Shown: one piece after another, positions 29,754 to 59,797 of the stretch
Position numbering within the stretch: the stretch's first letter is position 1
Layout: each line of letters opens with the position of its first letter
Translations under genes and position numbers: made by a program
The notes under the pieces: generated by a model
Databases searched by the model: none
What the model was told of the DNA's origin: nothing
The model's input: the letters and a program-made list of their open reading frames with translations, nothing else
Origin: Longimicrobiales bacterium
GTDB lineage: Bacteria > Gemmatimonadota > Gemmatimonadetes > Longimicrobiales > Gaopeijiaceae
DNA length: 64,000 nucleotides
Direction of reading: 5' to 3'
Assembly (NCBI GenBank): GCA_963664435.2
Contig: CAXXKM010000002.1
Coordinates: 256,001-320,000 of the forward strand

Positions 29754-29903
29754 CGGTCGGGGCGCTCATCTGCGACCGTCAGATGGTCGACTGGTCGCTC
29801 GGTACCATCCTGGCACATCGCGATGCCGCCGGGAAGGGCGTCCCCTTGATCCTGACGTAACGTCATGCGGTGTCATGTTTGTATCTTTCTGTGGTCGTTG
29901 GCG

Positions 29904-31113
29904 TTACGTGTTCGGCAGCCCGGATTCCCGCTGTTTGACTCCCGCTATTCTCGACTCCCGTCGCGACCCGCGGCGGCGGGCTTCCAGAGCGTTCCGAAGC
30001 TGTCCTTCATCGGCTCGCTGATAGCACTGAAGCACCGTCTTGGCGGTCTTCCAGCCTCCGAGTTCGCACAACACTTTGAGCGGTTGGTCCATGAGGTCGG
30101 AGGCAAACTTCCGCCTCAAGGAGTGCCAGCCTCTCCCGCGCTTGGGTTCCAACCCCGCCAGCTTCTGGGCCCTGTCCCACCAAAAGCGTACAAGCGTCCG
30201 TCCCGCGCATCTCGAAGCGTCCCTCGGCGCAGGGAGCACCGGACCGTTGCCGGTCCCCGGGCTTCTACGTCGCGCCTCCATGAGGGCTGCGCTCGCCTCA
30301 GCAGTCACCGGTGTGTAGTGCTCGTATCCTGTCTTCTCGTGCTCCGCCCGCCACCGAACCGTTTCCGCTTCAAGATCGATATCCGACCATCGGAGCTGGC
30401 GAATGGCTCCGATGCGGTGTCCCGTCTCGTGCGCGAGCACGAGCGCGACGTAGAAGCGCCAATTGACCTGCCCGGACACTCCGAGAAGCGCCTGGTATTC
30501 CTCTTCGGACAACACCACTCGCGTGGGGTTCTTCTCCGTGGGCGTCTTCAGGCCTCTCAGGGGATTCGAGTCAAGGAGCAGGTTGCCCTGCACGTCCCTC
30601 GACTTGGCGGCCCAGTTGAGCACGGCGATCAGGAACTTCAGGTCGCTTTCGATGGTCCGGTCGGACACCGGCCTGCCGCTCGGGCCGATCTTGCCCGCGC
30701 GCCGTGCCCGGATGAACCGGTCCCAGTCGCGCTGAGAGAGCGTCGCGGGACTCCGGCCCCGTCCGAAGAACCGGAGGAACATCGTTGTCGCCGCCCGGTC
30801 GGATCGTTGAGATGTCTCCGCCTTCGTGGGCGTCACCTCTTCACCGTAGATGTCAAAGAGCCTCTCCAGCGTGAGCGGCTCGGGTTCCTTGTGGCCGTTC
30901 GGCTCCGGCTTTGCGAACCCTGCGGCGAACTCGTCCGCCTCCCGCTTCGCGCGCCTCCAGTCGCGGTGCTTCAGCGACCGGGTGAGCCTGCGTCCGTTCT
31001 CGCGCCACTCCATCTGGTACAGGCCGGTCTTGGCGTCGGGAAACACCCTCACCCGGTTCCGGCCCCATTCACCGGCGCCGTAAGAGCGCCGACTTCCGTT
31101 TCGTGCGTGCCAT
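29904..31113 (-). CDS. Tyrosine recombinase/integrase, with an apparent +1 frameshift near codon 7
   Basis: Catalytic TGHRIGA, HEKTG, WHSLRR, LGGW and CYQ; RBS+ATG at 31113 is out of frame with the main ORF 29904-31052. Confidence 0.9.
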
Positions 31114-31769
31114 CATTCGATTCCTCCGATGATGGACTGCACGATCTGCGCACTTGAAAGCTCGCATGTGGGTGGCGTTTTCTCCAGTCGCGCTCAGAAG
31201 CGCGTTTCCGGTCCGGAATCGCGTCGCCGGGGCCGTAGCGCGAAGTGCCATCCGCATCGTGGGTGGGCGGGCACGAAAACGGCTTACGGGGGACACACGT
31301 CCGATTCCAAATATCGTTGGACGCCTTGTGGGTACGGCGCAAAGGGGCGGTGGCGGTGATCCTTGGGATCGTTCCAACCTCCTGATGCCGTTGCCGTCAC
31401 TACGGTGGAGCGCCGGGGTGTGATCAACCTCGTTCCCGTAGCGGCCTAACTTAGCGCAACGCCAGTTGGTGGCGTGGAGTACGGTTCGGCGGAGGCCTCT
31501 AGCGGTGCCAAGCGAGCGAGCGGTGAAGTTTGCTCATGCGATCAAGGGCCGGCAACGTAGACCGCGAGCCAAAGAAGGATGGATCCACCGGAAACAGGAG
31601 CCAAGATTGAGCAGCCACCAAGACCAACAAGTGGATGCGATTCTGGAAATGCTGCAGCGAATCCTGACGGCGCTCGAAAGGCACAACAAGACGCGGGGCA
31701 CATCTCCACAACTCCACGCGGTTTCCGAGTTGTACGATGAGCCCCATTACATCAGAGTCAGTGCCGCCA

Positions 31770-31860
31770 TGCTGGCCCGCCAAAGCGATCCACTCGGCCT
31801 GCCGGCCCGTCAGCGCAAACCGCTCCAACGCCCTCTCGGGGGCTTGAGATGGACGAGCAT
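31770..31860 (-). pseudogene. Short frameshifted remnant of a hypothetical element gene
   Basis: MLVHLK..ALERFALTGRQAEWIALAGQHGG after a GGAG RBS, then loss of coding character. Confidence 0.3.
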
Positions 31861-32087: not shown

Positions 32088-33647
32088 TCAGTCCGGCACT
32101 CTGCCGGGCAGCCCGAAGCTGACGAGAACTGGGGTTTCCGAGCCCCTGCGACCCGCGCCCACGGCATCGGCGGCTGTCGTCGCCGCAGCCGAGGCCGCAT
32201 CCTCGCCTCGGAGCACCGAGGTCAGCCTGCCCGTCTCGCGATCCAGCACCAGTGCCATGGCCTGGTCGCTGGCCTCGTTCAGTTCGACCGAACCCTCCGG
32301 ACCCGAAAGTACGATCCGTTCCAGCAGGTCTGCCCAGTCCTCCTCGGCCGGAATCGCAAACAGGAAGTTGCCCCCGCCGTGGCTCAATTCCTCCATCGCG
32401 AAGTCCAGTGAGAACTCGCGACTGCCCCCGGTGGCGAACCCTTCGAGCCGGTAGGGACCGGCCTCGGTCGGAAGCTGGACAGGCAAGTCCAGCGTGAACG
32501 CGGGGTTCAGCCTCAATTCACCGTCCTGAGTAGTGCCACCCCAGAGCAGCAACCGCCGGGCATCTGCCGAACCGGCCTCGGGAGTCGCGGGGGGTGTCGG
32601 GCGGCTTTCCCTCCTCAGGCGCTGCCTCAGTGCACTGGCGAAATGGTAGTCGCTGATCCAGGCCGGAATGCAGTATCCCATCACGTCGGGTGTCGACGGC
32701 GGCACCAGCTCCCCGGAGCGCGCGTCGTATCCCCAGACTCCTATGGAGCCATCGTTGTAGGGATAGTTCAGATCAGCGGACTCGTAGGCGAATCCGAGGT
32801 TGCATGGAGCGTGCCAGATGAGGTACATCGCGTGGCCGAGTTCGTGGGCCATGATGTGATCGATCTCTCGTCGCAACCTGCCGACGCCCACGAACCCTGC
32901 CGCGATTCCGACCGTGCCTGCTCCCGAGCCACCGATGACTCCAAAGTAGTAGCCCGTTCCGCCGTCCATGGTTCGGAGCAGGAGCATTTCGTCGACGAAG
33001 TAGCTCCAGTCCTTGTAGCTATCCGGGTATTCGGTCCGGATGAACGGCTCTCGCACCCTGATGGAATACTCGCCCACTGGGAGCACCTGGGTCACGTATT
33101 CGACCGTGGGGTGTTCCGGTCCCAGCTCCGAGGTCCAATCGAGAACGCCGCTGTCCGGAGCTTGCGCCGTAAGCGTGGGCACGACGGTAAGATCCATGCG
33201 CGGCATCTCGCGCACATCGAGCTGCAGCCGACCCTGCGCGGGAAACCGGGCAACGCTGCCAGCGGCGCGCGGCACGACTCTTCCGGGATCCACCTCTACA
33301 GCCACTTCGACGCCCGGCACCAGGATGTCGCCCGGGACTGCGGCGAGCAGGGACTGATCCGGATGAGCGGCAGCCGCATCCTCGGGGATGCCCAACTCTG
33401 AACGGAGTTCGAGTTCCGCGCGGTGGACCTCCCGGCCGTTCAGGAAGAACCGCGCCTCTCCGCCGGGCTGGTAGTCGTTCGCGTGGTCGGCGGTCACGAG
33501 CACGCGCACGAGCCCGTCGCGCCCCGCGATCAGCGGCACGCGCCCCGCGAGATCCTGGGCCGCCTGATTGACATGCGCGCCGACCACGGAAAGCCGGACT
33601 GCCGGCGAGCAGTTCGTGCCGCCCGTATGGCTCTCGATCGCCCCTAG
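32088..33647 (-). pseudogene. 3' part of the IS-interrupted surface lipoprotein: zinc metalloprotease (M66-like) domain
   Basis: HELGHAMYLIWHAPC zincin motif and DVMGYC Met-turn; in frame with 35333-38273 once the IS is removed. Confidence 0.82.
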
Positions 33648-35332
33648 CCCGGATTTCTCACAGGGTGGCGGATTTGGGTGTGGAATGAAGGATTGAGGCC
33701 GTGGTTGGGCGGGTCAACCGGGTTGCAGGGCGGGAAGGGGTCCCGGTTTCGTCGTGTGAGAGGCGAGAGACGGGGAGAACTGCTGGCTGAAGGGGTCTTC
33801 ACTGCTCGCGGGGCGCACGGGTCCCGGCGGTCTTGCCGAGAGGATGTCCGGAGTGCGTGGGAACTACGCTGGCAATCGTGCGTGGACCCGGGCGAAGGCG
33901 GTCGCGGAGGGGTGTGCGGAGTCCATCGCGACCTTGAGCCGCCGGATGGAGACGGTGACGCGGGCACCGATCTTGAGGAGCTTGAGCCGGAGGGTTCCGG
34001 CGGTGGCGCGGGCCAGGCGCGTGCCGTGGAGCGCACGGCGCAGGGCGTCGAAGAGAATCGAGGCGAAGGCGGAGAAGAGGAGCCGGAGCTGGTTGGCGGC
34101 GAAGCGGGAGGCGGAGGTCCGGTCGGAGAACAGGTCCAGCTGCTGCTCCTTGATCGCGTTCTCCATGTTGCCCCTCGGGCAGTAGACGCGCTCGTAGACG
34201 GACCGGGCCGAGAAGGTGTCGGGCAGCGAGGTGACGACGAAGCGGGGGTTGGACTTGCCGGGCAGGTGCTCGGCCTTGGCGACGACCCGGCGCTTGCGGG
34301 ACCAGCTTGTGAGGGTGGCGTAGAGGAACTCGGTGAACCGTCGGGCCGACCGGCCCCGGCGCTCCGCTGACGCCGCGGCGTCAGCCAACTCCGGGCCGAT
34401 CTTCTTGACGAGCCGCGAGTTCCGGGCCAGGCCGATGGCGTAGTCGACGTCGTTGTCTTCGCACCAGGCCAGGAGGTCTTCGCGGGCATAGGCGGAATCG
34501 GCCCGAAGCAGGATCTGCAGTCTCGGCCACCGTTGCCGGAGCCGTTCGACGATGCGGCCGAGGGGCCCCCTCACGCCTCCGGCGGGATCCGCGTTGCCCG
34601 GCCTCAGCAGCGCGAAGAGCGGGCGGCCGCCGCAGGTGATGTACAGCGGCAGGAAGCAGTAGTGGTTGTAGTAGCCGTGGTAGAAGCCGCCCTCCTGGCG
34701 GCCGTGGACCTCGTCGTCGGTCGAATCGATGTCCAGCACGAGCCGGGACGGCCGCCTCCCCCTCCAGGCGTCGATGAACGACTCGAGCAGCACGGCCTGC
34801 AGCGCGTCCGCATCGTGCTCGATCCTGTGGTACCGCCCCGGCGCCCCGGCGGGAGGTGCATGCTCCAGACGGTTCAGCGTGCTCTTGCCCGCCAGCGCCG
34901 CGCAGTTCCTGCGGCGGCCCTCGAGCTTCCCGGAAAACAGCGCCAGCAGCGGGTCGTGCCGCAGCTCGTCATGGTCGTTGAGATCCTCGTATCCCAGCGC
35001 AATGCCCATGATCCGCTGCGCCACCAGCGTCTCGACCGAGTGCTCTGTCAGGCGGGCATCGCGGTGGTCCGTGAAGCACGCGGCCACCCGGTCGACGAGC
35101 CCAGTGGACCGGTCGGCCGCTCTGAGCAGCAGCGCTCCCCCGTTCGACGTAATCGATCCGCCGTCGAACGCCGCGGTCACCTTCCGGCCCTGGCACCCTT
35201 GAAATCCGAACGAAACGGGTCTATACTGTGTCGGCATCGGTCCTCTGGTGTGGTGACTGTCAAGTTTGTGCGGCACATAAACTTAACAACCCCCGGAGGC
35301 CGATGCCATCTTATTGCTGTGAGAAATCCGGG
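33648..35332 (-). mobile_element. IS1380 family insertion sequence (1685 bp)
   Basis: Perfect 16-bp terminal inverted repeats CCCGGATTTCTCACAG (33648-33663) / CTGTGAGAAATCCGGG (35317-35332); flanked by CTAG/ATAG (imperfect TSD). Confidence 0.95.
33864..35237 (-). CDS. IS1380 family DDE transposase
   Basis: FDGGSITSNGG, GYEDLNDHD, LDIDSTDD, RADSAY and RGNMENAIKE motifs. Confidence 0.96.
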   Translation of the reverse strand: MPTQYRPVSFGFQGCQGRKVTAAFDGGSITSNGGALLLRAADRSTGLVDRVAACFTDHRDARLTEHSVETLVAQRIMGIALGYEDLNDHDELRHDPLLALFSGKLEGRRRNCAALAGKSTLNRLEHAPPAGAPGRYHRIEHDADALQAVLLESFIDAWRGRRPSRLVLDIDSTDDEVHGRQEGGFYHGYYNHYCFLPLYITCGGRPLFALLRPGNADPAGGVRGPLGRIVERLRQRWPRLQILLRADSAYAREDLLAWCEDNDVDYAIGLARNSRLVKKIGPELADAAASAERRGRSARRFTEFLYATLTSWSRKRRVVAKAEHLPGKSNPRFVVTSLPDTFSARSVYERVYCPRGNMENAIKEQQLDLFSDRTSASRFAANQLRLLFSAFASILFDALRRALHGTRLARATAGTLRLKLLKIGARVTVSIRRLKVAMDSAHPSATAFARVHARLPA

Positions 35333-38273
35333 ATAGCCACGCCTGGTACCATTCGACCGCCGGCGCGCAGAGACCGCTGTCGTTCCATTGGAAGTCGGCC
35401 AGATTCGGCAGCCCGGCCAAGGAACCGGGCAGCGCGCCGGTGAACCGGTTGCCCGCCACGAGCAGGGTCGTGAGTTCCGAGAGGTTTCCGAGTGCGGCCG
35501 GAAGCCGGCCGTCGAACCGGTTAGCCGACAGATACAGCTCGCGGAGTTCCGCCAGCTTGCCCAGTTCGCCCGGTAGTTCGCCAGCCAGCCGATTGTCCCG
35601 GAGATCGAGACGCCTCAGGTCCGCGAGGAATCCGATTTCCGGCGGGACCGTACCCGAGAGCCCGTTGGCGCGAAGGTCCAGCTCCGTCACGCGGCCTTCC
35701 TCGTCCGTCGTCACGCCATGCCACTCCGACACCGGCTGATCCGTCAGCCAACCGATTGCGTTTGTCCACCCGGGGCCGCCAGCCGCCTCGTACAGTGCCG
35801 CCAGCGCGTCCGCGAAGCAGGTGGGTCCGCCCCTCATGTCCCGGATGGTCTCCAGCCACGCCTGAAACTTCGGATCGGTAGGCGCGCACAGCCCGGTGTC
35901 CTCCCACACGAACCTCGTGAGCGGCAAGTCGATCAACTCAGTCGGGATCGGTCCCGCCAACTCGTTCTCTGCCACAGTCAGGATTTCCAGGCGGCGAAGA
36001 TTGCCGAGCTCGGGCGGAAGAAGGCCGGTCAGATTGTTGTCGCTGAACAACAGGTACCTCAGGTCCACGAGATTGCCTAGTTCCGGCGGCACCACCCCCT
36101 CCAGGCTGTTGCCCTGGAGCAGCAGTTCGGACAGCCGGGTCAGCCCGCCGAGCCACGGCGGGATCGACCCGCTCAGGTCGTTGTGGGGAAGATAGAGACG
36201 TCGGAGGTTCTGGAGTTCGCCGAGCGAGGGCGGAATCGAGCCCGTTAGCTCACTATAGTGGAGCGTGAGGCTCTCGAGATCCGCGAGGTTGCCGAGTTCC
36301 GGTGGAATCGAGCCCGTAAAGCGGTTATAGCCCAGCTCCAGAAGCCGAAGCTCGGAGAGATTACTCAGCTCGCGCGGAATCGGGCCCGTGAACTGCGGGC
36401 AACAAGCGTAGGCGGTGAGATCCAGCTCGCGCAGACTGACGAGACCGCCGAGTTCCACCGGAATTTCGCCCGTCAAGTCAAGGTTCTGACCGAGGTCGAG
36501 GACCTCCAGTTTCGCGAGGGCTCCCAGTTCTGCCGGAATCGTGCCCGACAGGCGGTTCGCCCTCAGCCTCAACGAGCGCAGCTCCGGGAGACCAGCGAAG
36601 AACGGCGGAATGTGGCCGACGAGTTCGTTCGCGGAAAGATCCACGCGTTCGAGATCGGTGAGCTTGCCAAGATCCGAGGGGATGGCACCGGTCAGCGCAT
36701 TCTCGCTCAGGTTCAGTTCCTCAAGATTGGAGAGATCGCCTAGTTGCGCCGGAATGCCGCCAGTGAAGTTGTTGCCGTACAGGTTGAGCGACTCGAGGTC
36801 GGCGAGCCTGCCCAGCTCCGGCGGAATCGGTCCTGTCAATTCGGTGCGGGAGAGATTCAGCTCGCGCAATTCCGAGAGATACGCGAGTTCCACCGGAATC
36901 GAGCCGTGTAGCCGATTGGACAAAGCCAGGGTGACCACCCGGCCGTCGCCGTCGGTCTCGACGCCATGCCACGAATCCAGAGGCAGGTCCGTCAGCCAGC
37001 CCTCGCTGTTGTGCCAGAACGATCCGTTGGTGGCGTTGTAGAGCGTGACCAGAATATCCCGGTCGCTCGGATACCAGACCAGCATGTCGATGGTGCCGCT
37101 AATATCCGAGCCCGCCGACCCGGCGGCCGTGATCTCCACCGCGCCCTCCGCAACCGCCGTCACCAGACCGGTATCGTCCACCGTCGCCACGGTCTCGTTG
37201 CTCGTCGACCAGACAAACACGACGCCCGCATCCGCTACCGGAAAGCCGTTCGCGTCGGTCGGCTCCGCCAGCAACCGGACCGCCTCTCCCGGAGCCCGGA
37301 GCGTGTCCACCGCCGGCGTGATGCGAACACCCTTGATATCCTGGACCACCGTCACACGAGCCTTGGCCGACAGCGTTCCCGTCACCGGCGAACTGGTCGC
37401 CGCCGAGATCGTTGCACTCCCGGTCCCGACCGCGGTTACCAACCCCGTTGAGTTCACCGCCGCCACCGTCTCGTCGGCCGAAGTCCATTCGATCGTGCCC
37501 ACGCGCGTGACCGTGTGGCCGTTGGCATCCACCGCTTGTGCCGTCAGTCGCGTGGTGTCTCCCAGCGCCTGGAGCGCAACCTCGGCCGGAGCGATTCCCC
37601 GGAATTCGACCGCTCGCTGCGCGACCTCCACGACTGCCTCCGCAGTCATCCCCGAGACCGTCGCCGATATCGTCGAGCGTCCGTTCCCGACCGCCGTCAC
37701 CAGACCCGTGGAGTCCACGGTTGCAACTGTGCCTGCCGAACTTGCCCAAGCGAAATCGGATCCGACTGCGACCAGGTTGTCGGCGTCGTCATACGCCACC
37801 GCCTCCATCCGTATCGTGCCTGCAAGAGCAAAGAGTTGGAAGAAATCGCGCTCCATGCCGACCCGCGTAGGTTCTCCCAACTCCACCTTGACCGATACCC
37901 TGGACTGTACGCTCCCTTGGCCTCCTGGCATGCCCGTGAGGCTCGTGCCTAGCACCTCACCGGTGACGGTCGCCGACCCTCCGCCCACCGCAGTCACTGA
38001 GGCGCGGTAGGTGTCGGTAATGGACGGCACCATCGCCACCGACTCGTCGCTGCTGGCCCAAAACATCTTGGGCCCGTCCGGATTACTGCGCGCCGGGGGG
38101 GGACCGCCGACCTCTGCGGTCAGTTCCGCCTGCTGTCCGATTCCTCGAAGAACTACCTCTCCTGGTCGAATTTCCAAAGTAATTGGTGCTTTGGGCTCCA
38201 CCGGATCATCCCCACACCCGGCCACGAGCAACAGGAGCAGACGTGCTCTCGAGTGCCACCACCGCCGGATCAC
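35333..38273 (-). pseudogene. 5' part of the IS-interrupted lipoprotein: Big_2 Ig-like repeats plus plant-type 24-aa leucine-rich repeats
   Basis: Lipobox LVAGC; WxSSxxxVATVDxxGLVTAV repeats; many LxxLxLxxNxLTGxIPxELGxL units; W(H)GV caps. Confidence 0.9.
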
Positions 38274-38638
38274 GGTGTGACCGTCACCCATTCAGCCACC
38301 ACGCCGACCCCGCCTTGCCCGTCCCGCACCGCCAGCATGACCAGGAAGGTCCCCGCGGTCGCATATCTGTGGACATGCACTGCCTTCGTTCCCGCCGCCG
38401 CGCCGTCACCGGTCGACCACTGCCAGGCCGCGATCCCCGCATCGTCCGTCGACGTGCTCGTGAAGGTGCAATTCAGCCCGCTGCAGGACGTTGTGAAATC
38501 GGCGGTCGGCGGGGTGTTGGTTGCCCGGAACGGCCCACCGGTCGTGAGGGACAGAGTTGCGGACGTGGAGTTGTTGTGATCGTCCGTCACCGTCAGCACG
38601 ACGGTATAGGTGCCTTGCGAATCATAAGTATGGTCCAC
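38270..38638 (-). pseudogene. C-terminal PKD-domain fragment (5' truncated)
   Basis: HTYDSQGTYTVVLTVTD, PTADFT, WQWSTGDG and HRYATAGTF motifs; no signal peptide. Confidence 0.7.
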
Positions 38639-38825
38639 CTCCCGGCCCGAGCCCGAGAACTCTTCTAAGTCTAATCAGGACTCCACGATCTGCCGTTCTC
38701 GCCGTTGACGAAGATCTGGATCCGTCGGCCCGAAACAGCGGAGACTGGGGGCCAAACGGCGGACATTGTAGTAGCTGTCCCACAAGGAAGCGAGCGCGGC
38801 GAGGCTCCGCTCGGCCGCGTCATTC

Positions 38826-39060
38826 ACGCGGCGGCGTCACTCCGTGCTGGGCTATCGCTCGCCGCTCGAGTTCGAACGTCTCCACGTGGCCACTGTGGAC
38901 GGCCCGGCCTGTGAACGCCCTCCGGGCGCCCACGAGTCCGTTGGAGCCCGCGCTACGCGCGGACTCCAAACCGCCCACAGGAAGAGATGTTGATGTACAG
39001 GCCATAACGTGAACCCAAAATAACGTTAACCTGTCCGCGAGAGCGGGGCAACAAAGCTCA
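38826..39060 (+). mobile_element. IS3-family 3' end remnant
   Basis: RRRHSVLGYRSPLEFER (IS3 OrfB C-terminal motif) at 38829-38879, followed by an IS3-like end CTGTCCGCGAGAGCGGGGCAAC (39031-39052). Confidence 0.65.
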
Positions 39061-39067
39061 GCACCCT

Positions 39068-40048: not shown

Positions 40049-40148
40049 GGGCCTGAGGTCTCCTTGAAGTTGTGCCCCGCTCCTCGCTGTCTCGCGGGGG
40101 CGTCCACTAATGAAGAAAGAAGAATACACGAGTTGTACTGGACGCGCG

Positions 40149-40164
40149 TCCCCAATATTGGGGA
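40149..40164. promoter_or_regulatory. Perfect 16-bp palindrome TCCCCAATATTGGGGA (copy 1); putative LuxR-type operator
   Basis: Identical copy at 41687-41702; lies upstream of the 39068-40048 gene. Confidence 0.65.
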
Positions 40165-40247
40165 GATGTTGCGTCTTCTTCTGAGGATATTCAGGTAGTT
40201 CCGAAAAGGCGGAAGAGGTCAGCGCCGACCCGCGGCGGCTTCCGCCT

Positions 40248-41402: not shown

Positions 41403-41686
41403 CGGCGCGCCGTCGCTCGCGGACCGTGGGCCACCCGGATTCCGGTCGGCTCTCTCGCCATGAACCCTCCCCCCGTGTCGCTGATGCACCGCTGCAACCC
41501 TGCGCCCCGCTACGTCCAGGGCCGTACTGCCCGCGCCGACGCCAGGGGACACCCGCACCGCCTTCAGGGGCAGGGCAGGTAACACGGCAGACACGAGGAA
41601 TGCGTCCTCCGCACGCTGGCCCGAATGCGCGCACCTTCTGAAAAAATCAGATCTTGAATAGTACACGAATTGTGCGCGGGTACGCA

Positions 41687-42140: not shown

Positions 42141-42150
42141 GGGGCAGGAG

Positions 42151-49044: not shown

Positions 49045-52000
49045 ATGAGCGAGGTAACGTCTGGGAAGGACCGGGGCGTGACAGTGAATGGAGGCGAGCG
49101 AGAGCGGCGAGCCTTCGTCGAGCAGGTGCGCCACGAGAACGAGAAAGACTTTGGCCCATCCGCACGTAGAGCGGTCGATAGGATGCTCGCAGCGGGACAT
49201 CCGCACCCGTGGGCCTACGTCTACGAATTGTCACAGAACGCAATCGATGCGGGTGCTCGACGAATCTCTTGGCTGACCAACGGTGGGTCGCTGTCGTTCC
49301 AGCACGATGGGGACGTTGCGTTGGACAAACCCGCCGTGCGTGGGCTGTCTTCGATTGGTGCTTCGACCAAGGGGCAGGACGCCATCGGGTTCATGGGAGT
49401 TGGCTTCAAGTCAGTCTTCAATCGGTTTCGGACAGCGCGGGTTTCGGGTTGCGGCTGGCGTATCAAGTTCGACATCGGAATACGCCGCGGGGCGCTCGAC
49501 ACGACGTTCCCTGACAGGTTCGACGCGCTACGGCCACACTGGGATCCTGAGCGGCTCGATCCCGATGCTGGTTGCACTACCGCTTTTTTCTTCACCAATC
49601 CCGTGGACCCGGCTGCCTGCTTGGCCGACGACCTCGCGCACCTAGCGTCCCCCGACGACCCAACTCCGTTGTCTGTGCTCGCGTTGCGGGGTTTGGAGCA
49701 GGTGTGCATCGACGATGTCACTTGGGACCTCTCGGTGCGGGACGGAGTGGTCGAAGTTCGTCGCGCGCCCGATGGGCTCTCTCGGCGGTGGCGGTTCTTC
49801 GTGTCATGCTATCGCCCGGATGACGCCGCGATGCGACGGTTCTTGCAGGCGCGTCAGGACCTCACGTACCAAGAGGCCAGTGGGTCAGAGCGACCGAAAC
49901 GGAGCGTCGTGGCGCTCGTGCCCTTGGACGAGGACGGGTTACCGAACCCACCGTCCCAAGGTCGGGTCTACGCGACACTTCCGACTCGGGTGCCCATTCC
50001 CTTCGGATTCCATTTGCAGGCGGACTGGCTCGTCAACCTGGAACGCCAAAGCCTCCGTGCAATCAGGGGAGATCCTTGGCAGGAAGCCATCGTGCAGCAA
50101 GTCCCGGTGCTTGTGCGAGAAATGCTCCTTTGGCTGAAGGAGGAATCAGAATCCGCTAGGAGCCGAGGTTACCGGATCCTGTCCGGCCCCACTCGTGTCG
50201 AAGGCGAAATCTCCGATGTACTTGGTGCCCTGCGGTCCGATTTCGTTCGCTTGCTAGGGGATTTGGAGATCGTTCCAGTGCTCGGGTCGGAAACCAGACG
50301 ATTCTCCACACCGCAAGAGATCGTGCGCCTACCCGGCCGGTTTCTCAGCGAGTTTGGAAAACGCCCGGCGTGGCGTCCAGATTTGCTGTTTGACCGCGAC
50401 CTGATGGATGAAGGTCTCTTGGGGAGTCGCGCCGTGCAGTTCGCCAACTGGCTTGGGTGGGGACTCGACATCGATCCTGATGACGTAGAGTGGACTGTCA
50501 CGCTACCGCTTTGGTGGTCCGCGGCGGGGGGGAACACGGACGCGCTCTTTGCGCTTTGGTCGTGCGTCTCCGAGCAGGAATGGCACCACGCACCCGTCGT
50601 CCCTACGGAAGCCGACGGGTGGCTCCCCGCCGACGAGACGTGCTGGCTCAACGAAGAACCGCCGTCCGTCAAGGAACCGAGTGGGGCTGTGGTCGCCGCG
50701 GCGCTCGCTGGCTTCTTGCCTGCCGCCGAACAACGCCTACCACCGAGAATCCGCGCGCTTGTCAATCGAGATCGCACCTCCCACCCAGGCGTCACCTGGC
50801 TGAAGGAACGGCACCGGGAGCAGCGGTTGAAAGACATCGTTCGGCAAGTTTGCACCGATGCCGGAGACGGCGACGCCTTCCCGCTCGTCGAACTCCTGGA
50901 TTGGGCCGTTGCCCGGGGTGCGAACCGCCATGACCTAGTGCCGCTGGTCCTGACCGAAGATGGTGCGCACAAGCCATCCGCAGCATTGCTCGCGGGTCCG
51001 CTCGTGCCGGGTGGAGAGGATCGACGCCGACTCTTCCCGAGCGTGCCAGCGCTCGTGGAAGACTACGCTTTCATCGACGACCAGCAAGCGGCCGTGCGCT
51101 TCATCGAAGGACTCGGGGTCCGCGGTGACGCCACGCTCAAGGAAGAGCGCCACGATGTCGGCCGCAACAAACAGGCGGTCGGCAAGCTACTCGGGATTGA
51201 GGTGGACCGGATTGAGCCTGCAGCGCGCTGGTCGGGGTGGACTGTGCTCGACTACGACCTGCCTTTCCAGGTTCAAACCGTCCCACTGGACGCCCTACAG
51301 AGATGGCTTTCACGCGAACATACCCTTCTTGCGCACAAGGGCAGGCTGAAGGCGAGCAGCAGTTTCCATGGCCCGAAAACAACTGACGGAGAACGACCCT
51401 CGAAGTGGGTGAAGACGCTGGAGGAGCTTCCGTGGATTCTCTGTGAAGATGGCCAACGCAGGAAGCCCGCAGATTTGCTAATCGACGCCGACCCCGACTA
51501 CGAAGATGCGCCCCTCGCGCGTATCGATCCGGACTTAGCGAACCGCTTGAAGCAGGAAGGGGTTCGTTTCGGCGCCGACATCTCCCTCTCTCCCGTGCTG
51601 CGCCGGTTGGAGAAGCGAGGCTCATCTAACTTGCCGGACGCCGATCTGGCGGGTTTGCTCGAAGATGCGTTGGCAGAGATCGAGGCGGGCACCGTGACGC
51701 GCGATGAACTGATAGCCACGCTTCGCTCCGTGAAGCTACGCGGCGTCCCGTTGGAACGTGTAGTGCGAGAGGCTGGTCGTCCCGGGACGCGAAGTGACCT
51801 CGGCGGATGGGTGGTGGCGCTTTCCTCTGTCGAGGCAGTTTTGGCTACGGCGGTGGATCGAATTGAGATCGAACTGCCCAGGACAACCACGGGCCAGCAG
51901 GCTCTCGGATACCTCTCTGAACGCTGGAGACGTAGGCCGGAGTCCGTCGGTGAGATCCGAGCCCACATAGCGTCCGCGTATCGCTACGTCCTTCAAGACT

Positions 52001-53346
52001 TGGAGCGCGACGATCTGGACCGTGGAGTCTGGCGCGACGCAAAGCAAGAGGCTCGGCTCTATGGCAAGGGTCGTTGGCATGAGATCAGTGACTCACTCGT
52101 GGTCGATGATGTCCGATCCCCCTTCATTCGCCAACTGCTTACAGCCAACCGCGTAGCCATCTCAGCCGCACACCTCGGAGGAGCCCCAGAACAGATTCGC
52201 CTCGTTGCGGCCGAACTTGGGATCGCCTGCCTTTCGACCAAGATCAAAGTAAGTGAGGGACCTGAGCTTCCCCGCCCGCCGTGGATGGACAATTTAGAGA
52301 GACTCTTGGCGGCTCTCGGCACCCTTGAGGGCCGCCAACCGCTGAGGAGAATCACATGCCGCAAACACCTCGCGTTGCGCGTCGAAGGCGAGAGCCACCA
52401 AGTCACCGCCTATTTCGTCCATGATGAACTCATGGTCACCGGGACTCCAGAGACCTTCGGTACGGAAGCGGCCGAGCAACTCGTCGAGCAGTTCCAGTTG
52501 GGACAGCGAGGTAACTCGATACCGCGGCTGACGGCAGCGCTTGGTTCCCTTGCGGTGGATGAACGGTTTTCTGAGAATCTGAAGGTGCTCGCTAGCGGTC
52601 TCGGGTTGTCCGTACCAGAGCCGACCTTGAGACCTGAAGCAGACACCGGAGAAACCCTGCCGTCAGGTCGCGTTGATCCGGAACCAGCAGTTACGACTCG
52701 AACCGTCCCGGATTCGCGACCTGAACCGCCCGACGGCCAAAGCCGCAGGGTCCCACCCAGGGATCAGGCCGCCCAATCCCCAAAGACCACACCTGATTCG
52801 AGCCCTGCAGCAGACCAATTCGCGATCCTCATCGGCAGGAATCAGGGAAAGGCGTCCTCGGTGCCAACTGCGGGGGGCTCAGATGCGGTCGAGCTAACCA
52901 AGACCAAGACTCCCCCGAAGGACGATAAGAAAGCGCGTGCTACCGTGGTCAAGTACGAGACACGGCACAGGCGGCGGGCTGAGGAAATGCCAGCCGGTCA
53001 ACCGGGCTTCGATGTTCTCAGCGACGACCCCGAGACGGGGCGGCAGCGACGCATCGAAGTGAAGGGTGTCAAGGGGGATTTCGCGGAGGATGCGAGCGTG
53101 CTTCTCACGGCACGCCAGGTGGAAGACGCCCTCCAGCACAAACAGCCCGACGTGCAATACTGGCTCTATGTAGTCGATCGCACGGAGACGGATAATCCGC
53201 GGGTTTTTCCCATCCCATGGACACGGAATCGCAGCCAGCTTCGATACGGTTTCTATGCTGAAATGTGGGCGCAGTGTGCGGAAAGGGAACCGCGACACTC
53301 CGATACGATAGTTCGGCAAGAGGACGTAGAATCGGAGGTTCGGTGA
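49045..53346 (+). CDS. Sacsin-like GHKL ATPase with C-terminal DUF3883 (NOV-C, PD-(D/E)xK-like) domain
   Basis: YELSQNAIDAGA, IGFMGVGFKSVF, FGFHLQADW; C-terminal PGFDVLS...IEVKG...YWLYVV. Confidence 0.85.
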   Translation: MSEVTSGKDRGVTVNGGERERRAFVEQVRHENEKDFGPSARRAVDRMLAAGHPHPWAYVYELSQNAIDAGARRISWLTNGGSLSFQHDGDVALDKPAVRGLSSIGASTKGQDAIGFMGVGFKSVFNRFRTARVSGCGWRIKFDIGIRRGALDTTFPDRFDALRPHWDPERLDPDAGCTTAFFFTNPVDPAACLADDLAHLASPDDPTPLSVLALRGLEQVCIDDVTWDLSVRDGVVEVRRAPDGLSRRWRFFVSCYRPDDAAMRRFLQARQDLTYQEASGSERPKRSVVALVPLDEDGLPNPPSQGRVYATLPTRVPIPFGFHLQADWLVNLERQSLRAIRGDPWQEAIVQQVPVLVREMLLWLKEESESARSRGYRILSGPTRVEGEISDVLGALRSDFVRLLGDLEIVPVLGSETRRFSTPQEIVRLPGRFLSEFGKRPAWRPDLLFDRDLMDEGLLGSRAVQFANWLGWGLDIDPDDVEWTVTLPLWWSAAGGNTDALFALWSCVSEQEWHHAPVVPTEADGWLPADETCWLNEEPPSVKEPSGAVVAAALAGFLPAAEQRLPPRIRALVNRDRTSHPGVTWLKERHREQRLKDIVRQVCTDAGDGDAFPLVELLDWAVARGANRHDLVPLVLTEDGAHKPSAALLAGPLVPGGEDRRRLFPSVPALVEDYAFIDDQQAAVRFIEGLGVRGDATLKEERHDVGRNKQAVGKLLGIEVDRIEPAARWSGWTVLDYDLPFQVQTVPLDALQRWLSREHTLLAHKGRLKASSSFHGPKTTDGERPSKWVKTLEELPWILCEDGQRRKPADLLIDADPDYEDAPLARIDPDLANRLKQEGVRFGADISLSPVLRRLEKRGSSNLPDADLAGLLEDALAEIEAGTVTRDELIATLRSVKLRGVPLERVVREAGRPGTRSDLGGWVVALSSVEAVLATAVDRIEIELPRTTTGQQALGYLSERWRRRPESVGEIRAHIASAYRYVLQDLERDDLDRGVWRDAKQEARLYGKGRWHEISDSLVVDDVRSPFIRQLLTANRVAISAAHLGGAPEQIRLVAAELGIACLSTKIKVSEGPELPRPPWMDNLERLLAALGTLEGRQPLRRITCRKHLALRVEGESHQVTAYFVHDELMVTGTPETFGTEAAEQLVEQFQLGQRGNSIPRLTAALGSLAVDERFSENLKVLASGLGLSVPEPTLRPEADTGETLPSGRVDPEPAVTTRTVPDSRPEPPDGQSRRVPPRDQAAQSPKTTPDSSPAADQFAILIGRNQGKASSVPTAGGSDAVELTKTKTPPKDDKKARATVVKYETRHRRRAEEMPAGQPGFDVLSDDPETGRQRRIEVKGVKGDFAEDASVLLTARQVEDALQHKQPDVQYWLYVVDRTETDNPRVFPIPWTRNRSQLRYGFYAEMWAQCAEREPRHSDTIVRQEDVESEVR

Positions 53347-53468
53347 TTCCCGCCATTCGATAGCGGTTTCCCCGCGATTTCAGCCCTGCGGCATCAGACG
53401 TGGGCCAAGGGCAGGAAGCGCAGATCGTGCAGTCCTGTAAGATTTTGGACGATTCCCTGCCCTGATTC
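53346..53468 (+). repeat. Diverged copy of the island right-end sequence
   Basis: Colinear with 59635-59757: ATTCCCGCCATTC, GCAGATCGTGCAGTCC and TTTGGACGATTCC shared at the same spacing. Confidence 0.8.
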
Positions 53469-54371: not shown

Positions 54372-55772
54372 ATGCCTAGAGTCGCGAGCCTGCCGATCAA
54401 GCAGCTGCAGCTAGACCTCAGAAACTTCCGAACGGTGCCGCAAGCAAACGAAGAGGAAGCCGTAGACGCGATGGTGTCTATCCGACCCGGCTGGTTCTGG
54501 GCGCTCATGGAGAGTCTCTTGGACAGCGGCTACCTCCCCATAGAGAGCGTTCTCGTGCTTGAGGGCGTGGGTTCCGACGGGAAACCGACCTTCACGGTCA
54601 AGGAAGGGAACCGTCGCGTAGCGGCCCTGAAAATCGCGCACGGACTCTTGAGTCGTTCACACCTCGAAGTTCCAGCGAACATCGAGAGCAACTTGGCCGA
54701 TGTATCGAGTGGTTGGCGGGCCGAGACCGACGAGGTTCCCTGCATCATCTATCCGGCGTCGGAAAGCGACACCGTGGACCGTATCGTCACGCTCGCCCAC
54801 GGCAAAGGGCAGAAAGCGGGCCGCAGCAACTGGACCGCAGTCGCACGTGCAAGACACAGTCGCGACGTCAACGGCGCGAACGAACCGGCGCTCGATCTAC
54901 TTGAAGCCTACCTGAAGGACGGTAAGAACCGAACACCCCTGCAGGCCCAGCAGTGGGCAGGTGACTACCCGCTAACTGTGCTCGCGGAAGCAATGAATCG
55001 GGTCGCTGGACGCTTGGAAGCGGATTCCGCACGGGACCTCGCAAGCCAATACCCATCGATCTCCCATAGAGACGCGGTTGAAGCCATCACACGAGATATT
55101 GGGTTAGGACTGCTAACCTTCAAGGACATCCGCCAGCCGGAGGCGGATTTCGCGGCGCGCTACGGCATTCCGCGGGCCCCTGACGGGGATGCTTCCAAGG
55201 GTACGTCCAGGAAATCAAAGGAACAGGAAGGACAGAAAAGAGGAGCCAGTAAGAAGGAGACCAAGCGGGGGGCCAAGACCAGGAGTACGAAAGCAGAAGC
55301 CTCAAGTTTGCGCGATCCCAAGGCCGTTAAGGCAATGGTCAACGGTTTCAAGCCTCGGGGATCGGATCGCGAGAAAGTGGTTCTTCTACGAAACGAGATG
55401 CGTTCGTTGGTCCTCAAGAATAACCCCCTGGCTTTCTGCTTCCTTCTCCGTAGCATGTTCGAGATTTCCGCGAAGGCGTACTGCGGGGACCAGGGTGCCA
55501 AGGGCGGGCTCTCCACCAAGAAGAACGGCAAAGATCGACCTCTAGTGGATATCCTCCGCGTCATCACGAAGCACTTGACGAAGAACAAGGCCGACAAGGA
55601 ACGTACTAAGCAGCTACACGGAGCAATGACAGAATTGGCACGACCGGAAGGCCTGTTGTCGGTAACCTCCATGAATCAACTGGTTCACAACCCGAAGTTC
55701 TCGGTGACGACGGGGGACGTCTGTCAGCTGTTCGGTAACATATTCCCACTCCTGGAAGCGATGAATGAATGA
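54372..55772 (+). CDS. ParB/Srx-like N-terminal domain protein with a HEPN-like C-terminal domain
   Basis: LQLDLRNFR and VKEGNRRVAALK (ParB-like); LLRSMFEIS...MNQLVHNP (HEPN-like). Confidence 0.7.
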   Translation: MPRVASLPIKQLQLDLRNFRTVPQANEEEAVDAMVSIRPGWFWALMESLLDSGYLPIESVLVLEGVGSDGKPTFTVKEGNRRVAALKIAHGLLSRSHLEVPANIESNLADVSSGWRAETDEVPCIIYPASESDTVDRIVTLAHGKGQKAGRSNWTAVARARHSRDVNGANEPALDLLEAYLKDGKNRTPLQAQQWAGDYPLTVLAEAMNRVAGRLEADSARDLASQYPSISHRDAVEAITRDIGLGLLTFKDIRQPEADFAARYGIPRAPDGDASKGTSRKSKEQEGQKRGASKKETKRGAKTRSTKAEASSLRDPKAVKAMVNGFKPRGSDREKVVLLRNEMRSLVLKNNPLAFCFLLRSMFEISAKAYCGDQGAKGGLSTKKNGKDRPLVDILRVITKHLTKNKADKERTKQLHGAMTELARPEGLLSVTSMNQLVHNPKFSVTTGDVCQLFGNIFPLLEAMNE

Positions 55773-55860
55773 GCCTGGGCAACCCGGCGGAATGTGCTGG
55801 GGTCATGATGGTGAGGGGCTCTGATCGCATGCTACGTCACACCCATCCGGTACGCCCGGA

Positions 55861-55996
55861 GACGAGATCGACCGGGATGCGTGGGCGACGTAAGACGAAC
55901 GTCTCTCGCCCGTTCTACAAGCACGGGTCGCGGCGGATCGCGGTCAAGGGCATCAACCACCTCGGCAATCAGGCCATGAAGGTGTTCCGGGCGTAG
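55861..55996 (+). pseudogene. C-terminal remnant of a type III-associated DNA methyltransferase (Mod-like)
   Basis: EIDRDAWAT-stop, then SRPFYKHGSRRIAVKGINHLGNQAMKVFRA-stop in another frame, resembling the recalled Mod tail SRPF..GRIAVKVINHLGDEVMKV. Confidence 0.55.
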
Positions 55997-56025
55997 GCCG
56001 CACTCGCCCTTCGTGAGCCCTTCGG

Positions 56026-57114
56026 TCACACATCGAAACAGAAATCGTGTTCCACGAGTTTTGACGCCTTCGCGCCGCGAAATGCATTCGCCTGTGTGCC
56101 ATTGACCGTTGACGAAAAGCCACTGCTGGTAAGGGATACCTCTCGATCCAAGCCGCTCGCCAGCGCCCGGGACAGCCCATCCCGCAGTTCCGACTTCCCG
56201 AAACGTCGCCCACCAATTCGGACGACCACACGAGCGCGCTCGGCCAGCAGCCCCCGCCATCCTTCGACCGATTCCGTGACAAACTTCCAGTACTGTTTCT
56301 TGCAGTAGTGACGGTCGTCCTGCCGCTCATACGCAGCTCCCGGCCTGCCCCCAAGGAACCACAGCCTGAGCCATTGATCCTCACGGAAATTCGTCGTGTC
56401 CAGATACGGTGGTGACGTAATCACATCGGTCACGCGGCCGGTCAGCGACAGTAGCGCTTCGCCCGCTTGGCGCGCATCGGCCTCAACCACCTGTCCCTCA
56501 CTCTCGGGAGGGGGAGTTCGGAACCGGTAGTCGATCATTCGGTGCAGGATCTCGAATACGTCCCGGCGAGGCGGCTCGTGACTGTTCCTACGCCACCACC
56601 GGATGGAGTATCCAGGCTTCGTGCTGATCGTGCGCGGCATGCGATTGCTGAAGCAGTTCGGCGTGCGATGGGATTCGCCGTGGAGAGCCCCCAGGCAGAG
56701 CGCCGCTATGAAGCGGTCCTTTCGGCAGTTCCGCCAATCGAGTGCCGATCTCAGGTATCGAATTTGAGGGAGTGTTTCGGGATGATAGCATAGCTCGAAG
56801 AACTCCTGTATCTTCCCTTGCCAGCCGGGATCATTGGGTTCCTGGAAGTCGGCCTGCAACTCCTTGACCCGTTCCCGGGCATGCGCCGGGCTCGGCGGAA
56901 TAGCCTTGGCACCGGAGAGACATACCGCAACGGGATGTACGTCGCAGCCGGCAGCTTCCCTGCCCTGCAGCAAGGCTTGAAACACCGTTGTTCCCCTTCC
57001 GCAGAAGGGGTCGAAGACGACGCCATCATGGGGACTTGCCGCTAGCCGTGCTTTCACGAACGACTCGGGGAACATCGCGAAGTATGGGCAGATCGAGTGG
57101 AATCGATGCCTCAT
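56026..57114 (-). CDS. DNA amino-methyltransferase (probably N4-cytosine, alpha order)
   Basis: PYFAMFP, motif I DPFCGRGTT near the N-terminus, motif IV ITSPPY later. Confidence 0.88.
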   Translation of the reverse strand: MRHRFHSICPYFAMFPESFVKARLAASPHDGVVFDPFCGRGTTVFQALLQGREAAGCDVHPVAVCLSGAKAIPPSPAHARERVKELQADFQEPNDPGWQGKIQEFFELCYHPETLPQIRYLRSALDWRNCRKDRFIAALCLGALHGESHRTPNCFSNRMPRTISTKPGYSIRWWRRNSHEPPRRDVFEILHRMIDYRFRTPPPESEGQVVEADARQAGEALLSLTGRVTDVITSPPYLDTTNFREDQWLRLWFLGGRPGAAYERQDDRHYCKKQYWKFVTESVEGWRGLLAERARVVVRIGGRRFGKSELRDGLSRALASGLDREVSLTSSGFSSTVNGTQANAFRGAKASKLVEHDFCFDV

Positions 57115-58106
57115 GCGGCCTCCCGAGCACGGTCACGGTAGCTCGCGACCCAATCGACGACCGCCTGAAGCTGGTCGTACGCTTCGATGTTCACGCCCGC
57201 CTCGACGAGCTTCCGCGCTTCAGAGACCCGCACGGGAACTCGTAGGCGGTGCAGCATGTTGCCCAAGGAGCGCACATGATCGCGCAGCTTCAGGTCGGCT
57301 ACCGCGAACGGCACGATCATGTAGGGAATGAATCGCGTTGCGGGCGAGTCCGCGAACCAACGCTGTTTGAACACGTCCAGATGGCCGAGCAGTGATTTGT
57401 CTTTCCAGTCCTTGCCGGTGGCGACTTGGGCAACGGCAAGCAGAAACCCAGGCTGTCGATCCGGATGAAGACGAGCGGCGAAGACATCTACCTTGTCGTC
57501 TTTGGGGCGCTCCGGCGCACCGGGCTGCCGACTGACCGTGCCGTCCTCGAACGTTGACCAGATCTCCTTGAGTTTCCCGAGAAATGAGGACCCATCCGGC
57601 CGTGGGAAATCGAAACTCCAAGCAACTCCTTGAATCTCGGCCGCTAGAGCAGCCGTGCTCAGGTATTGGAAGAGCCGCCGAAGCCCTGGGATTTCCTCTT
57701 CCTCAGGAATCAACCGCGAGTTGGAAAGGACTGGCGAATGCAGATTCGACAAGACCAAGCTCAAGACGTATGCCGCTTTTCCGAGAGACTCCCCAACGGG
57801 CTCGTAGGTGAGGATATCTCCGTTGGGATCGAGCCAAAACGGATACGCAGAACCGAGCACCTCGTGTCTGCTTTCAATCCTCTGGATGACCTCAGACTTC
57901 ATCTCCTCCACCCCGTCTTTCATCTCGTCGTCAAGATCGGAGGGTTCCTCGTCGGCACCGATTGAAGCCTCGTTCGCGACATCGGAGGTTCGAACGAAGC
58001 CGTCCTCGGCGAAGAACGCTGCAAGCTCCAGGAAATCGGCAGCCGAATCGGGGTCTCGCAACTCTCCCACCAACTCATCGAGGGGGACGTAGAGGCCCAG
58101 TCTCAC
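57111..58106 (-). CDS. Hypothetical protein with a restriction-endonuclease-like PD-(D/E/Q)xK-type motif
   Basis: KDDKVDV...AQVATGKDWKDK; ATGA/GTGA overlaps with both neighbours. Confidence 0.6.
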   Translation of the reverse strand: MRLGLYVPLDELVGELRDPDSAADFLELAAFFAEDGFVRTSDVANEASIGADEEPSDLDDEMKDGVEEMKSEVIQRIESRHEVLGSAYPFWLDPNGDILTYEPVGESLGKAAYVLSLVLSNLHSPVLSNSRLIPEEEEIPGLRRLFQYLSTAALAAEIQGVAWSFDFPRPDGSSFLGKLKEIWSTFEDGTVSRQPGAPERPKDDKVDVFAARLHPDRQPGFLLAVAQVATGKDWKDKSLLGHLDVFKQRWFADSPATRFIPYMIVPFAVADLKLRDHVRSLGNMLHRLRVPVRVSEARKLVEAGVNIEAYDQLQAVVDWVASYRDRAREAA

Positions 58107-59239
58107 CGTTCCGTCTCCGCCCGTCGGCGCTTGTCGTTCATCCTCGAGTGTAGTACCTCGGCCGTTTCCTTGATGTCCTCCGATATCCCGAGTAGTGACT
58201 CATCCCGCCCGTCATAGGCTCGCACGGAGCCGATCGCTGCCTGTAGCGCCCGACGAGATTCGATCAGGGACTTGGTGAACCTTGCTGTCACGGGCTCCGC
58301 TACTTCGTGTGCGCGATCAAGGTTGCCGGTGATCTTCAGTTCATGAATCGCCTCCGGCTTGGCGAGCACCTCACCCAGCCGCTTGATGTCCGGGTTCTGC
58401 CTTTTGACGACGTGCTTCTCGTCGTCGGGCCGGTAGCCATATATCCACCGAAGAACTTGGCGAAGCTCTCCCGTCTTTTCGGCCGGCACCGGATCGAGCT
58501 CTGGATCGTAACGAGCCCAGCCACTGGCCAAGCCCAGATACGCCATGTATTCAGATCGGGACAGGGCGGTATACAGGTGGGAGAAGTTGAATTTCTTCGG
58601 ATACCGGTCTTCGACCTCGAACAGTGCCTCGTCGCTCGCCTGCTCCAGAACGTAGATCGCCGACACCATGCGCTTGATCGTATCGTGCCGGTCGCCGATC
58701 GCTCTCGCGATGTCGTCCAGACCGACACCCGAGTCCTTCGATTCCTTGTACCACTTCGCCGCAAACCGCGCTTTCGCGTAGGCGTCCCATTTCTGTGGGC
58801 CGTTGATGTGCTTGAAGCCGATCAGCGGCCGCGCCTGGATCCGGTCGGAAACCCGGTAGACGGTGACTTGGTCGAACGTAGGGCGTAGACTGTCCGGTAT
58901 CCCCGGGATGGTGAGATTCAGCCCCTCGTGGCTGCGGATTCGGGAGACGAAGTCCGGTTCCAAGAGCAGTCGGACGGCCGCGAGCCGCCGGTTCCCCTCC
59001 AGTACAACGAGTTCTCCACCCTCCGGTCCTTCCATCACGACTAGGGGCTCGATATCGAGGTATCCGTTGGAGGACATCGACTGGAGAAGCTCGTCGAGCT
59101 CGGCACTGCGGTAGAGCTCGGCGACCAACGCCTCGTCGGAGTGGCGCCCCGCCTGCCCCGTCAGACGCGGGTTCTGGCGATCCAAGCGGAGTTGCTCCAC
59201 CGAGACCTTGGTAGGATGCTCGACTCTTGGGAGGGTCAT
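58103..59239 (-). CDS. ParB/Srx-like N-terminal domain protein
   Basis: LRLDRQNPRL, EPLVV, VLEGNRRLAAV and KHINGPQKW motifs; ATG 59239 (alternative 59296). Confidence 0.78.
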   Translation of the reverse strand: MTLPRVEHPTKVSVEQLRLDRQNPRLTGQAGRHSDEALVAELYRSAELDELLQSMSSNGYLDIEPLVVMEGPEGGELVVLEGNRRLAAVRLLLEPDFVSRIRSHEGLNLTIPGIPDSLRPTFDQVTVYRVSDRIQARPLIGFKHINGPQKWDAYAKARFAAKWYKESKDSGVGLDDIARAIGDRHDTIKRMVSAIYVLEQASDEALFEVEDRYPKKFNFSHLYTALSRSEYMAYLGLASGWARYDPELDPVPAEKTGELRQVLRWIYGYRPDDEKHVVKRQNPDIKRLGEVLAKPEAIHELKITGNLDRAHEVAEPVTARFTKSLIESRRALQAAIGSVRAYDGRDESLLGISEDIKETAEVLHSRMNDKRRRAETER

Positions 59240-59766
59240 CTCTGGCTCCAGGTTCGCGGCGCTCGCATATGCAGGCGGGTATCCGTCGTACGCCATTCGA
59301 TCCTAAGCTGCTTGACGAAGGCGACTAATGGAAGAGCACGGTCGGCGGGGGTGCCGTTCCGGCCCCGAATTCCAAACATACCATGCCGGGCAGCCGCAGG
59401 TGTCCGCAATCCCGTCGCGAAGACCTCCTTGCCAGCCGCTAGCCTGTCACCCGTACAACGGGCTCGGCGGCCGCCGCGAATAGCGACGTGGCCCTTACCG
59501 TGATGTACAGGTCAGAGTCTCTCGGAGAAAGGAGACGGGTGGATCAAGAACGCCCAGGACCTTTCCGCAGAGCCCTGCTAGCCGGAATCGCTGCTCGGCA
59601 GAAGACCGCGACAGACGCGCTGTCGGTGACTGGCATTCCCGCCATTCTGGTACGATTCTCCCGCTATTCTGCGCGGATGGGATCAGCGACGCCCCAATGG
59701 CAAGGATGGCAGATCGTGCAGTCCCGGTTGACTTTGGACGATTCCTTGCCGTGATCCCCTCCCCCC

Positions 59767-59797
59767 TTGACCCTGACGTAACGTCAGGGTTTACCTT
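59767..59797 (+). promoter_or_regulatory. MerR-type promoter/operator
   Basis: -35 TTGACC (59767-59772), 19-bp spacer, -10 TACCTT (59792-59797); dyad ACCCTGACGT-A-ACGTCAGGGT (59770-59790); ATG 6 nt after the -10 (leaderless). Confidence 0.85.

Follow-up and report, generated by a model that had tools for sequence, protein, structure and literature searches.

Tandem integrative elements at a tipA-like promoter in a Longimicrobiales genome, with a MerR-type operator dyad as probable attachment site

The tipA-like locus and its junctions

The window considered here is the whole stretch of 64,000 nucleotides that was analysed from a Longimicrobiales bacterium (G000:C2:256001-320000, G000 being the genome of the window). 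It contains an island, with a tyrosine integrase at one end, that stops at the promoter of a tipA-like gene. An original prediction had proposed an integrative element bounded by two 24-bp direct repeats, using the operator palindrome (dyad) of this promoter as its bacterial attachment site (attB). The features bearing on this proposal are the following (coordinates in the window):

28899..29135, + strand: host gene of 78 amino acids (aa), whose stop codon abuts the tipA promoter in the empty alleles of G002 and G007
29137..29156, + strand: true left junction, with the host -35 (29140-29145), the left half-operator, and the core CGTAACG (29150-29156)
29157..29842, unstranded: 0.7-kb remnant of an earlier tandem element
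29283-29753, - strand: AHSA1/SRPBCC gene inside the remnant
about 29776-29846: end of a repeated element inside the remnant
29842..29865, + strand: internal tandem junction, TTGATC variant, core 29856-29862
29904..31116, - strand: tyrosine integrase (open frame 29904-31052, 382 aa)
29924..29948, + strand: paired TCCCGC(T/C) direct repeats, candidate arm-type sites
59635..59776, + strand: element far end, with the family-wide GCAGATCGTGCAG...CCGTGAT block
59767..59797, + strand: rebuilt MerR-type promoter, with the -35 TTGACC (59767-59772), the dyad (59770-59790, core 59777-59783), and the -10 TACCTT (59792-59797)
59804..60616, + strand: tipA-like gene (MerR helix-turn-helix, HTH, plus TipAS), with a nearly invariant internal M129

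Both 24-bp copies (29842-29865 and 59763-59786) are present, differ by a single base (TTGATC vs. TTGACC), and overlap the -35 and dyad as proposed, the right copy forming a complete MerR-type promoter. A third copy at 29137-29156 shares a 20-bp identity with 59764-59783, and the three matches (29137-29156, 29843-29862, and 59764-59783) compare with 0.00 expected from 100 shuffles. The proposed left boundary at 29842 has to be moved to this third copy. In G002 and G007, where the site is empty, the 78-aa gene is joined straight to the tipA promoter (the left flank with this gene is also found in G003, G016, and G017), and the G007 allele matches the window at 54 of the 56 bases left of 29156 and at 16 of the 20 bases right of 59783. 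The outer boundary is, therefore, placed at 29137-29156, which yields an island of 30,627 bp.

The 29842 copy reads as an internal junction, joining the 0.7-kb remnant to the integrase-bearing part. Its right arm, TCATGCGG, is the element's integrase-proximal end, and the first bases of the remnant resemble the integrase-proximal ends of G014 and G011. Contigs of sequencing runs X1 and X3, which may be the source sample, match 29292-29889 without differences, and a run X6 contig holds a longer version of the 29842-side end, carrying TTGACC. The TTGATC variant is best read as a small deletion between two near-repeats of this longer form, and would thus be a decayed internal junction. A joint from 29833 back to 29137 in run X6 may represent either a circle or just an extended linear end, and was not counted as excision. 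An IS110 origin for 29776-29846, suggested by a short motif, is unconfirmed and was set aside, Pfam having found nothing. A degenerate dyad-like word, ACCCTGACGCAACTTAAGGG, is located at 28773-28791, 360 bp left of the outer junction. At the other end of the island, the TCCCGC(T/C) pair recurs (59635-59668), and the last bases of the far end provide a -35 and a left half-operator identical to those of the host.

The promoter has the layout of the TipA class of MerR drug sensors, i.e., a 19-bp spacer and a dyad that overlaps the -35 at its 3' end, ahead of a gene encoding a MerR HTH and TipAS; a sigma-70 scan, which allows only 16-18-bp spacers, found no promoter. An exact search for the -35 plus dyad returned at least 117 loci from many phyla, 116 of them with enough downstream sequence. 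Among the matches listed, the motif is followed by a same-strand MerR HTH in 98 of these 116 loci, across phyla, with TA...T at 19 bp. The half-site obtained for AlbA by SELEX, ACNCTNACG, also lies over the -35 3' end in a 19-bp spacer, according to the available part of that study (bioRxiv 10.64898/2026.09.21.753095). This match, together with the MerR context, identifies the dyad as an operator of the TipA/AlbA class. By analogy with the AlbA and TipA papers, it is presumably bound by this organism's TipA; apo-TipA is described, in the accessible text of PMC7762955, as binding its own promoter poorly until its ligand binds.

Empty and occupied alleles, and the integrase clade

Among 18 relatives of G000 in its genus, tipA was found in 15, giving 16 genomes with G000 itself. 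The tipA site is empty in four of them (G002, G007, G018, and G013, the last having a toxin-antitoxin cassette immediately left of an intact dyad) and occupied in 12, with element sequence on one or both sides and the change always located at a CGT[A/T/G/C]ACG-type core, the dyad centre. A second lineage of six genomes (tipA 68-71% identical) contains five occupied sites and one empty site. The empty site, which the original prediction proposed to look for in relatives, thus exists in both groups, and every allele examined, whether empty or occupied, breaks at the same 7-bp centre, in agreement with the operator dyad as attB. The tipA and dyad tallies include two unpublished genomes (G056 and G037), neither of which underlies any junction claim. 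Direct-repeat cores are found at both element ends, with a single copy in the empty allele; another G000 element has its empty allele in G014 (L148).

In lambda-type recombination, overlap homology predicts a matching central base, and this is what is observed, as the two element ends share it in 13 of 13 pairs (the window being counted twice). Central A and central T are about equally frequent at integrase ends. The integrase end points toward tipA in G001, G003, G009, and G010, and away from it in G000, G005, G011, G014, G016, and G017; closely similar ends even lie in opposite orientations between the same host flanks (G003 vs. G016/G017). By comparison of these alleles, the attB of the clade described below can be written ACCCTNA-CGT[A/T]ACG-TNAGGGT, with a deduced exchange at the 7-bp centre, in either orientation. 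That the target class of this clade is an operator dyad is considered almost certain.

The predicted supply of a replacement -35 by the element holds for only part of the insertions. In the 11 occupied genomes whose tipA-side junction is known, six have a rebuilt -35 and left half-operator (G000, G004, G011, G012, G014, and G016), and five have lost them (G001, G003, G005, G009, and G010). This comparison shows that some ends carry a captured -35 and half-operator, with which the tipA promoter is rebuilt, and that other ends remove the promoter. The regulatory effect would, therefore, be larger than a retuning between two alleles, since the promoter -35 is removed in 5/11 genomes. In G062, a genome without any intact dyad, the tipA junction (L486) has an 8-bp core, CGTGAACG, and a spacer lengthened to 20 bp. 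An 867-bp HepT/MntA-type toxin-antitoxin cassette without integrase is flanked by two tipA-type promoter halves (L450:13333-14206 and L449:9485-10358; G001 and G009). The neighbour of such cassettes is a MATE-like gene in G001/G009, and tipA in G010/G013/G014.

The window integrase matches PF00589 (E 4e-16), and R213, H310, R313, W334, and Y344 are invariant in its family. Its best matches in a fold search are XerA, lambda Int, and Tn1549 Int, and a three-strand N-terminal domain is predicted with low confidence. None of the solved structures matched it by sequence, and NCBIfam provided only weak Xer-type matches, far below the cut-off; an integron (IntI/attC) was rejected on the basis of these weak matches and of the att-like direct repeats at the ends. 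Relative to homologues, an extra base near 31096 puts the first ~21 codons out of frame, which may be real damage or an assembly error (strain-specific contigs do not reach it); intact copies of clade integrases are present elsewhere in G000.

The integrase search covered 19 genomes of the genus and 10 others. G000 contains 26 family copies at E <= 1e-150, with ends at tRNA-like and many other sequences. Of 129 distinct family integrases, 39 have a dyad-core end and form one clade (in three trees), the other 90 having different ends. These 39 junctions show 34 different outer flanks, and eight are tipA promoter junctions. Their outer arm fits T.AG.GT in 32/39 cases and their inner arm in 2/39 (one row being mis-parsed). 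The expectation that integrase homologues lie at MerR-type operators holds for the dyad core at 39/129 ends, most of these targets (about 31 of the 39 junctions) not being tipA promoter junctions. The motif is indeed frequent genome-wide (in G000, 19 of 259 CGTWACG words have a T.AG.GT arm, against 0.16 expected), yet its copies also serve as island ends, which argues against a motif unrelated to the island. In addition to the tipA locus, G000 contains four elements with both ends at dyads, three single ends, and nine intact dyads. These junctions show that the same dyad is used at many non-promoter loci.

Sister groups, 72-81% identical (G000 genome-wide; L229-L308, L451-L480), have their ends at tRNA-like sequences, same-family integrase genes, and coding sequences; as a single residue marks the dyad clade, target switching seems to need little protein change. 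An RNA guide upstream of the integrase was rejected, as no clade-specific target words were found in the 520 nt upstream of 38 clade genes, compared with 81 others (other element parts were not searched), and Rfam gave no match in 27000-64000. A tRNA or tmRNA target was also rejected, none being present in the window. Overall, the locus is best described as a tandem array made up of small integrative elements that belong to one clade within a multi-copy, lambda-like family of Longimicrobiales tyrosine integrases.

Dispersed dyads and competing explanations

The strict dyad pattern occurs 1-15 times per genome in the genus and 0-2 times in 42 other relatives, with 0 occurrences of the reversed control in the genus. 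Among the 10 intact G000 dyads, each carrying at least one perfect SELEX half-site, only the tipA copy has a -35. The extra dyads lack promoter geometry and are recent, and they appear to result from in-place conversion or from 27-42-bp in-frame insertion. The dyads of the atpG/atpD junction and of two other gene edges occur in G000 and close kin, and are absent from G001, G006, G008, and G009, while a fourth site has its dyad in G016 and G018, not in G000. In three coding regions, near-matching Leu-Thr-Leu-Arg codons gave way to the dyad, which brought in TTA where outgroups have CTG, TTA representing 29 of about 34,700 Leu codons (0.08%). One enzyme gene contains the dyad as an in-frame insertion of 27 bp (G064 and G067) or 42 bp (G063), while G061 has a 15-bp remnant and four other genomes have nothing there; another dyad lies inside the 2-oxoglutarate dehydrogenase gene. 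Several dyads have flanks that map to separate places in G000, which would fit recombination between dyads. This distribution suggests that the target spreads through genomes. A host site of the parS/matS type was considered and rejected, the copies being dispersed, lineage-specific, and recent.

In G009, a 1-kb duplication (90% identical, L445:1287-2338 and 14296-15307) starts at a coding dyad, its second copy lying 13 kb away, and suggests the capture of flanking host DNA. In G067 and G069 (L495 and L503), a dyad stands directly after the end of a tRNA-like gene, and is not at the matching place in G000.

Dyad numbers also vary with gene content. The five genomes with a tipA match and no family integrase have 0-1 dyads, and five of the six second-lineage genomes with both have 10-23. 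Based on this co-occurrence, element-driven spread, taken on its own, is somewhat favoured. In the preferred model, the integrase would read the dyad itself, with ordinary overlap homology and a central A or T setting the orientation, and TipA would compete with it instead of being needed as a partner. The seed target would be the tipA operator, and element traffic would make the other dyads by converting near-matching sequences and leaving short footprints behind. Considered as a whole (tandem array, dyad attB, direct reading, TipA as competitor, and spreading target), this model is held to be fairly probable.

Several points weigh against it. Classical integration and excision leave the host arms unchanged, and classical integration does not explain how new dyads arise. 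G018 has eight dyads and no clade integrase was found there, while G062 and G065 have a clade integrase and 0 intact dyads. No excised circle, recombination, or attP joint was seen in contigs over 28300-31700. The clade is poorly supported in the trees (0.66 and 0.41), and the junction label, which gave 33 rows with a stricter pattern, was loosened once to reach 39. Only residue A283 marks the dyad clade, and the element-side arm is unlike the host arm, leaving room for a host factor. Finally, the genomes compared are kin, so that counts are not independent.

Dependence on TipA is considered unlikely, and slightly less likely still is its role as a targeting or gating partner, through which, once bound, the integrase would find or capture attB, the ligand state controlling integration and excision. 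In favour of this role, the most variable position of the host arm is one left free by the AlbA motif, the element arm differs from the host arm, and the ligand requirement reported in the accessible text on apo-TipA (PMC7762955) would suit such control. Four genomes with 8-17 family integrases and no full-length tipA (G006, G066, G068, and G070) have no clade member among the best matches, and 0-1 dyads. However, this co-occurrence equally follows if the seed has to be operator DNA alone. A clade integrase is also present in G065 without a tipA match (although this genome may be incomplete), and, of the two positions left free by SELEX, one is almost invariant in the targets (37/39). Moreover, MerR half-sites overlap the bases that a core-bound integrase must contact, which predicts competition. 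A combined scenario, in which the clade co-opted the operator as its att site, ligand-controlled TipA binding finds or gates it, and the operator was multiplied by conversion and footprints, is likewise regarded as doubtful; if true, the elements build landing pads for themselves, and these act in addition as decoy TipA sites and points of rearrangement.

The extra dyads could also be host-selected TipA sites (an expanded regulon or decoys) that the elements merely exploit. The SELEX half-sites found in all 10 G000 dyads, the constancy of dyads while their flanks diverge, and the position of one dyad just upstream of what is presumably a MATE exporter gene are in line with this idea, but it is made improbable by the lack of a -35 in 9/10 copies, by their positions (the atpG/atpD junction, the 2-oxoglutarate dehydrogenase gene, and in-frame insertions in an enzyme), by the scarcity of dyads in tipA carriers lacking the integrase family, and by site sets that differ between lineages. 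Even less credit is given to the earlier, narrower model of a single-site element (29842-59786) toggling tipA between TTGATC and TTGACC promoters. If the inner element alone were excised, at the core, TTGATC would come to lie before tipA, but no relative examined has TTGATC there, the clade uses 34 different flanks, and the window integrase is frameshifted near its start. The two variants do not constitute the proposed host-versus-element switch either, as the host allele (29140-29145) and the longer end of run X6 both read TTGACC.

Cargo and relation to known systems

The rest of the island consists of the following features:

32088..47315, unstranded: cargo, with an M66-like peptidase, a DDE_Tnp_1_4 transposase, a leucine-rich repeat (LRR) plus Ig-like protein, a LuxR-HTH protein, a cytochrome P450, and an outer-membrane beta-barrel
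33644-33663 / 35317-35336: inverted repeats around the DDE_Tnp_1_4 transposase
48147..53466, + strand: nested module with a Tiamat TmtA-like gene (49045-53346)
54372..59296, unstranded: defence-like cassette, with two PD-Lambda-5_A-like genes, a methyltransferase, and one unknown gene

Genes similar to that of the LRR plus Ig-like repeat protein (35283-38291) are carried by another G000 dyad element (L444). The nested module ends with the family far end (53346-53466), without a CGTWACG core, and 48577-53473 has a 91% copy at G000 C3:430080-434972. In the defence-like cassette, the two PD-Lambda-5_A-like genes face each other, and the GC content is lower (about 60%). None of the 50 window open reading frames (ORFs) tested was identified as a conjugation, relaxase, or virion gene, although filtered ORF sets may miss small genes; one MobC/NikA match lies inside a different G000 element, adjoining a second integrase. 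Phage origin was rejected, as no relative was found in viral contigs and no phage context was found. The relatives of the window integrase are mostly Longimicrobiales or Gemmatimonadota records, and about half of the locus is present in one sequencing run labelled sponge metagenome, no RNA run with the locus being among those listed, from which nothing follows as to expression; the host group of these elements is marine Gemmatimonadota.

These elements add a class of integration target, namely a regulator's operator, and, according to the end that arrives, their insertions either restore an autoregulated promoter or remove it. Perfect target sites that seem to have arisen newly in housekeeping genes are not expected from textbook integration. 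Integrases that are 72-87% identical and have many different 7-bp cores constitute a natural series for changes in target specificity and, as the operator sequence occurs in many phyla, the enzyme may find ready targets outside its host group. The literature searched, which comprised little subscription-only content, holds no description of an operator as attB or of a spreading target, and the available part of a Palauibacterales genomics paper (PMC10469786) does not mention integrases.

With the tyrosine integrases of the lambda type and of integrative and conjugative elements, the present system shares the R-H-R-W-Y set, its best fold matches (XerA, lambda Int, and Tn1549 Int), the 7-bp matching core, and the repeats at both ends. 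It differs from them by its target (the operator of a transcription factor instead of a tRNA or the end of a gene), by its use of dozens of loci in both orientations, and by the lack of transfer genes among the tested window ORFs and of any phage context found. Islands that integrate in tRNA genes and CTX/TLC phages at dif regenerate their own target. Here too, the element end carries a displaced host piece (the -35 and half-operator), but only at some ends (6/11); the restored object is a promoter, and the recombinase is element-encoded and not the host XerCD. Res-site hunters (Tn5053/Tn402 family) are DDE transposons that depend on a resolvase and target a site bound by another protein, a property predicted here for a tyrosine integrase.

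Sequence-specific insertion into a dispersed palindrome is also described, in the accessible parts of PMC1525189 and PMC11187229, for insertion sequences targeting repetitive extragenic palindromes (REP), attC, or terminal inverted repeats (TIR), such as ISPa11, ISPpu9/10, ISKpn4, and IS4321. Those rely on RNA-guided DEDD transposases, unlike the tyrosine recombinase described here, which has no target-matching words in the 520 nt upstream. As for the autoregulatory TipA/Mta/AlbA promoters, the available accounts share the 19-bp spacer, the dyad overlapping the -35 3' end, and the half-site ACNCTNACG with the present locus, where the dyad also serves for recombination and is found again at places that have no promoter. 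The element class is already known, while the operator as attB and the proposed spreading target are its apparently new parts.

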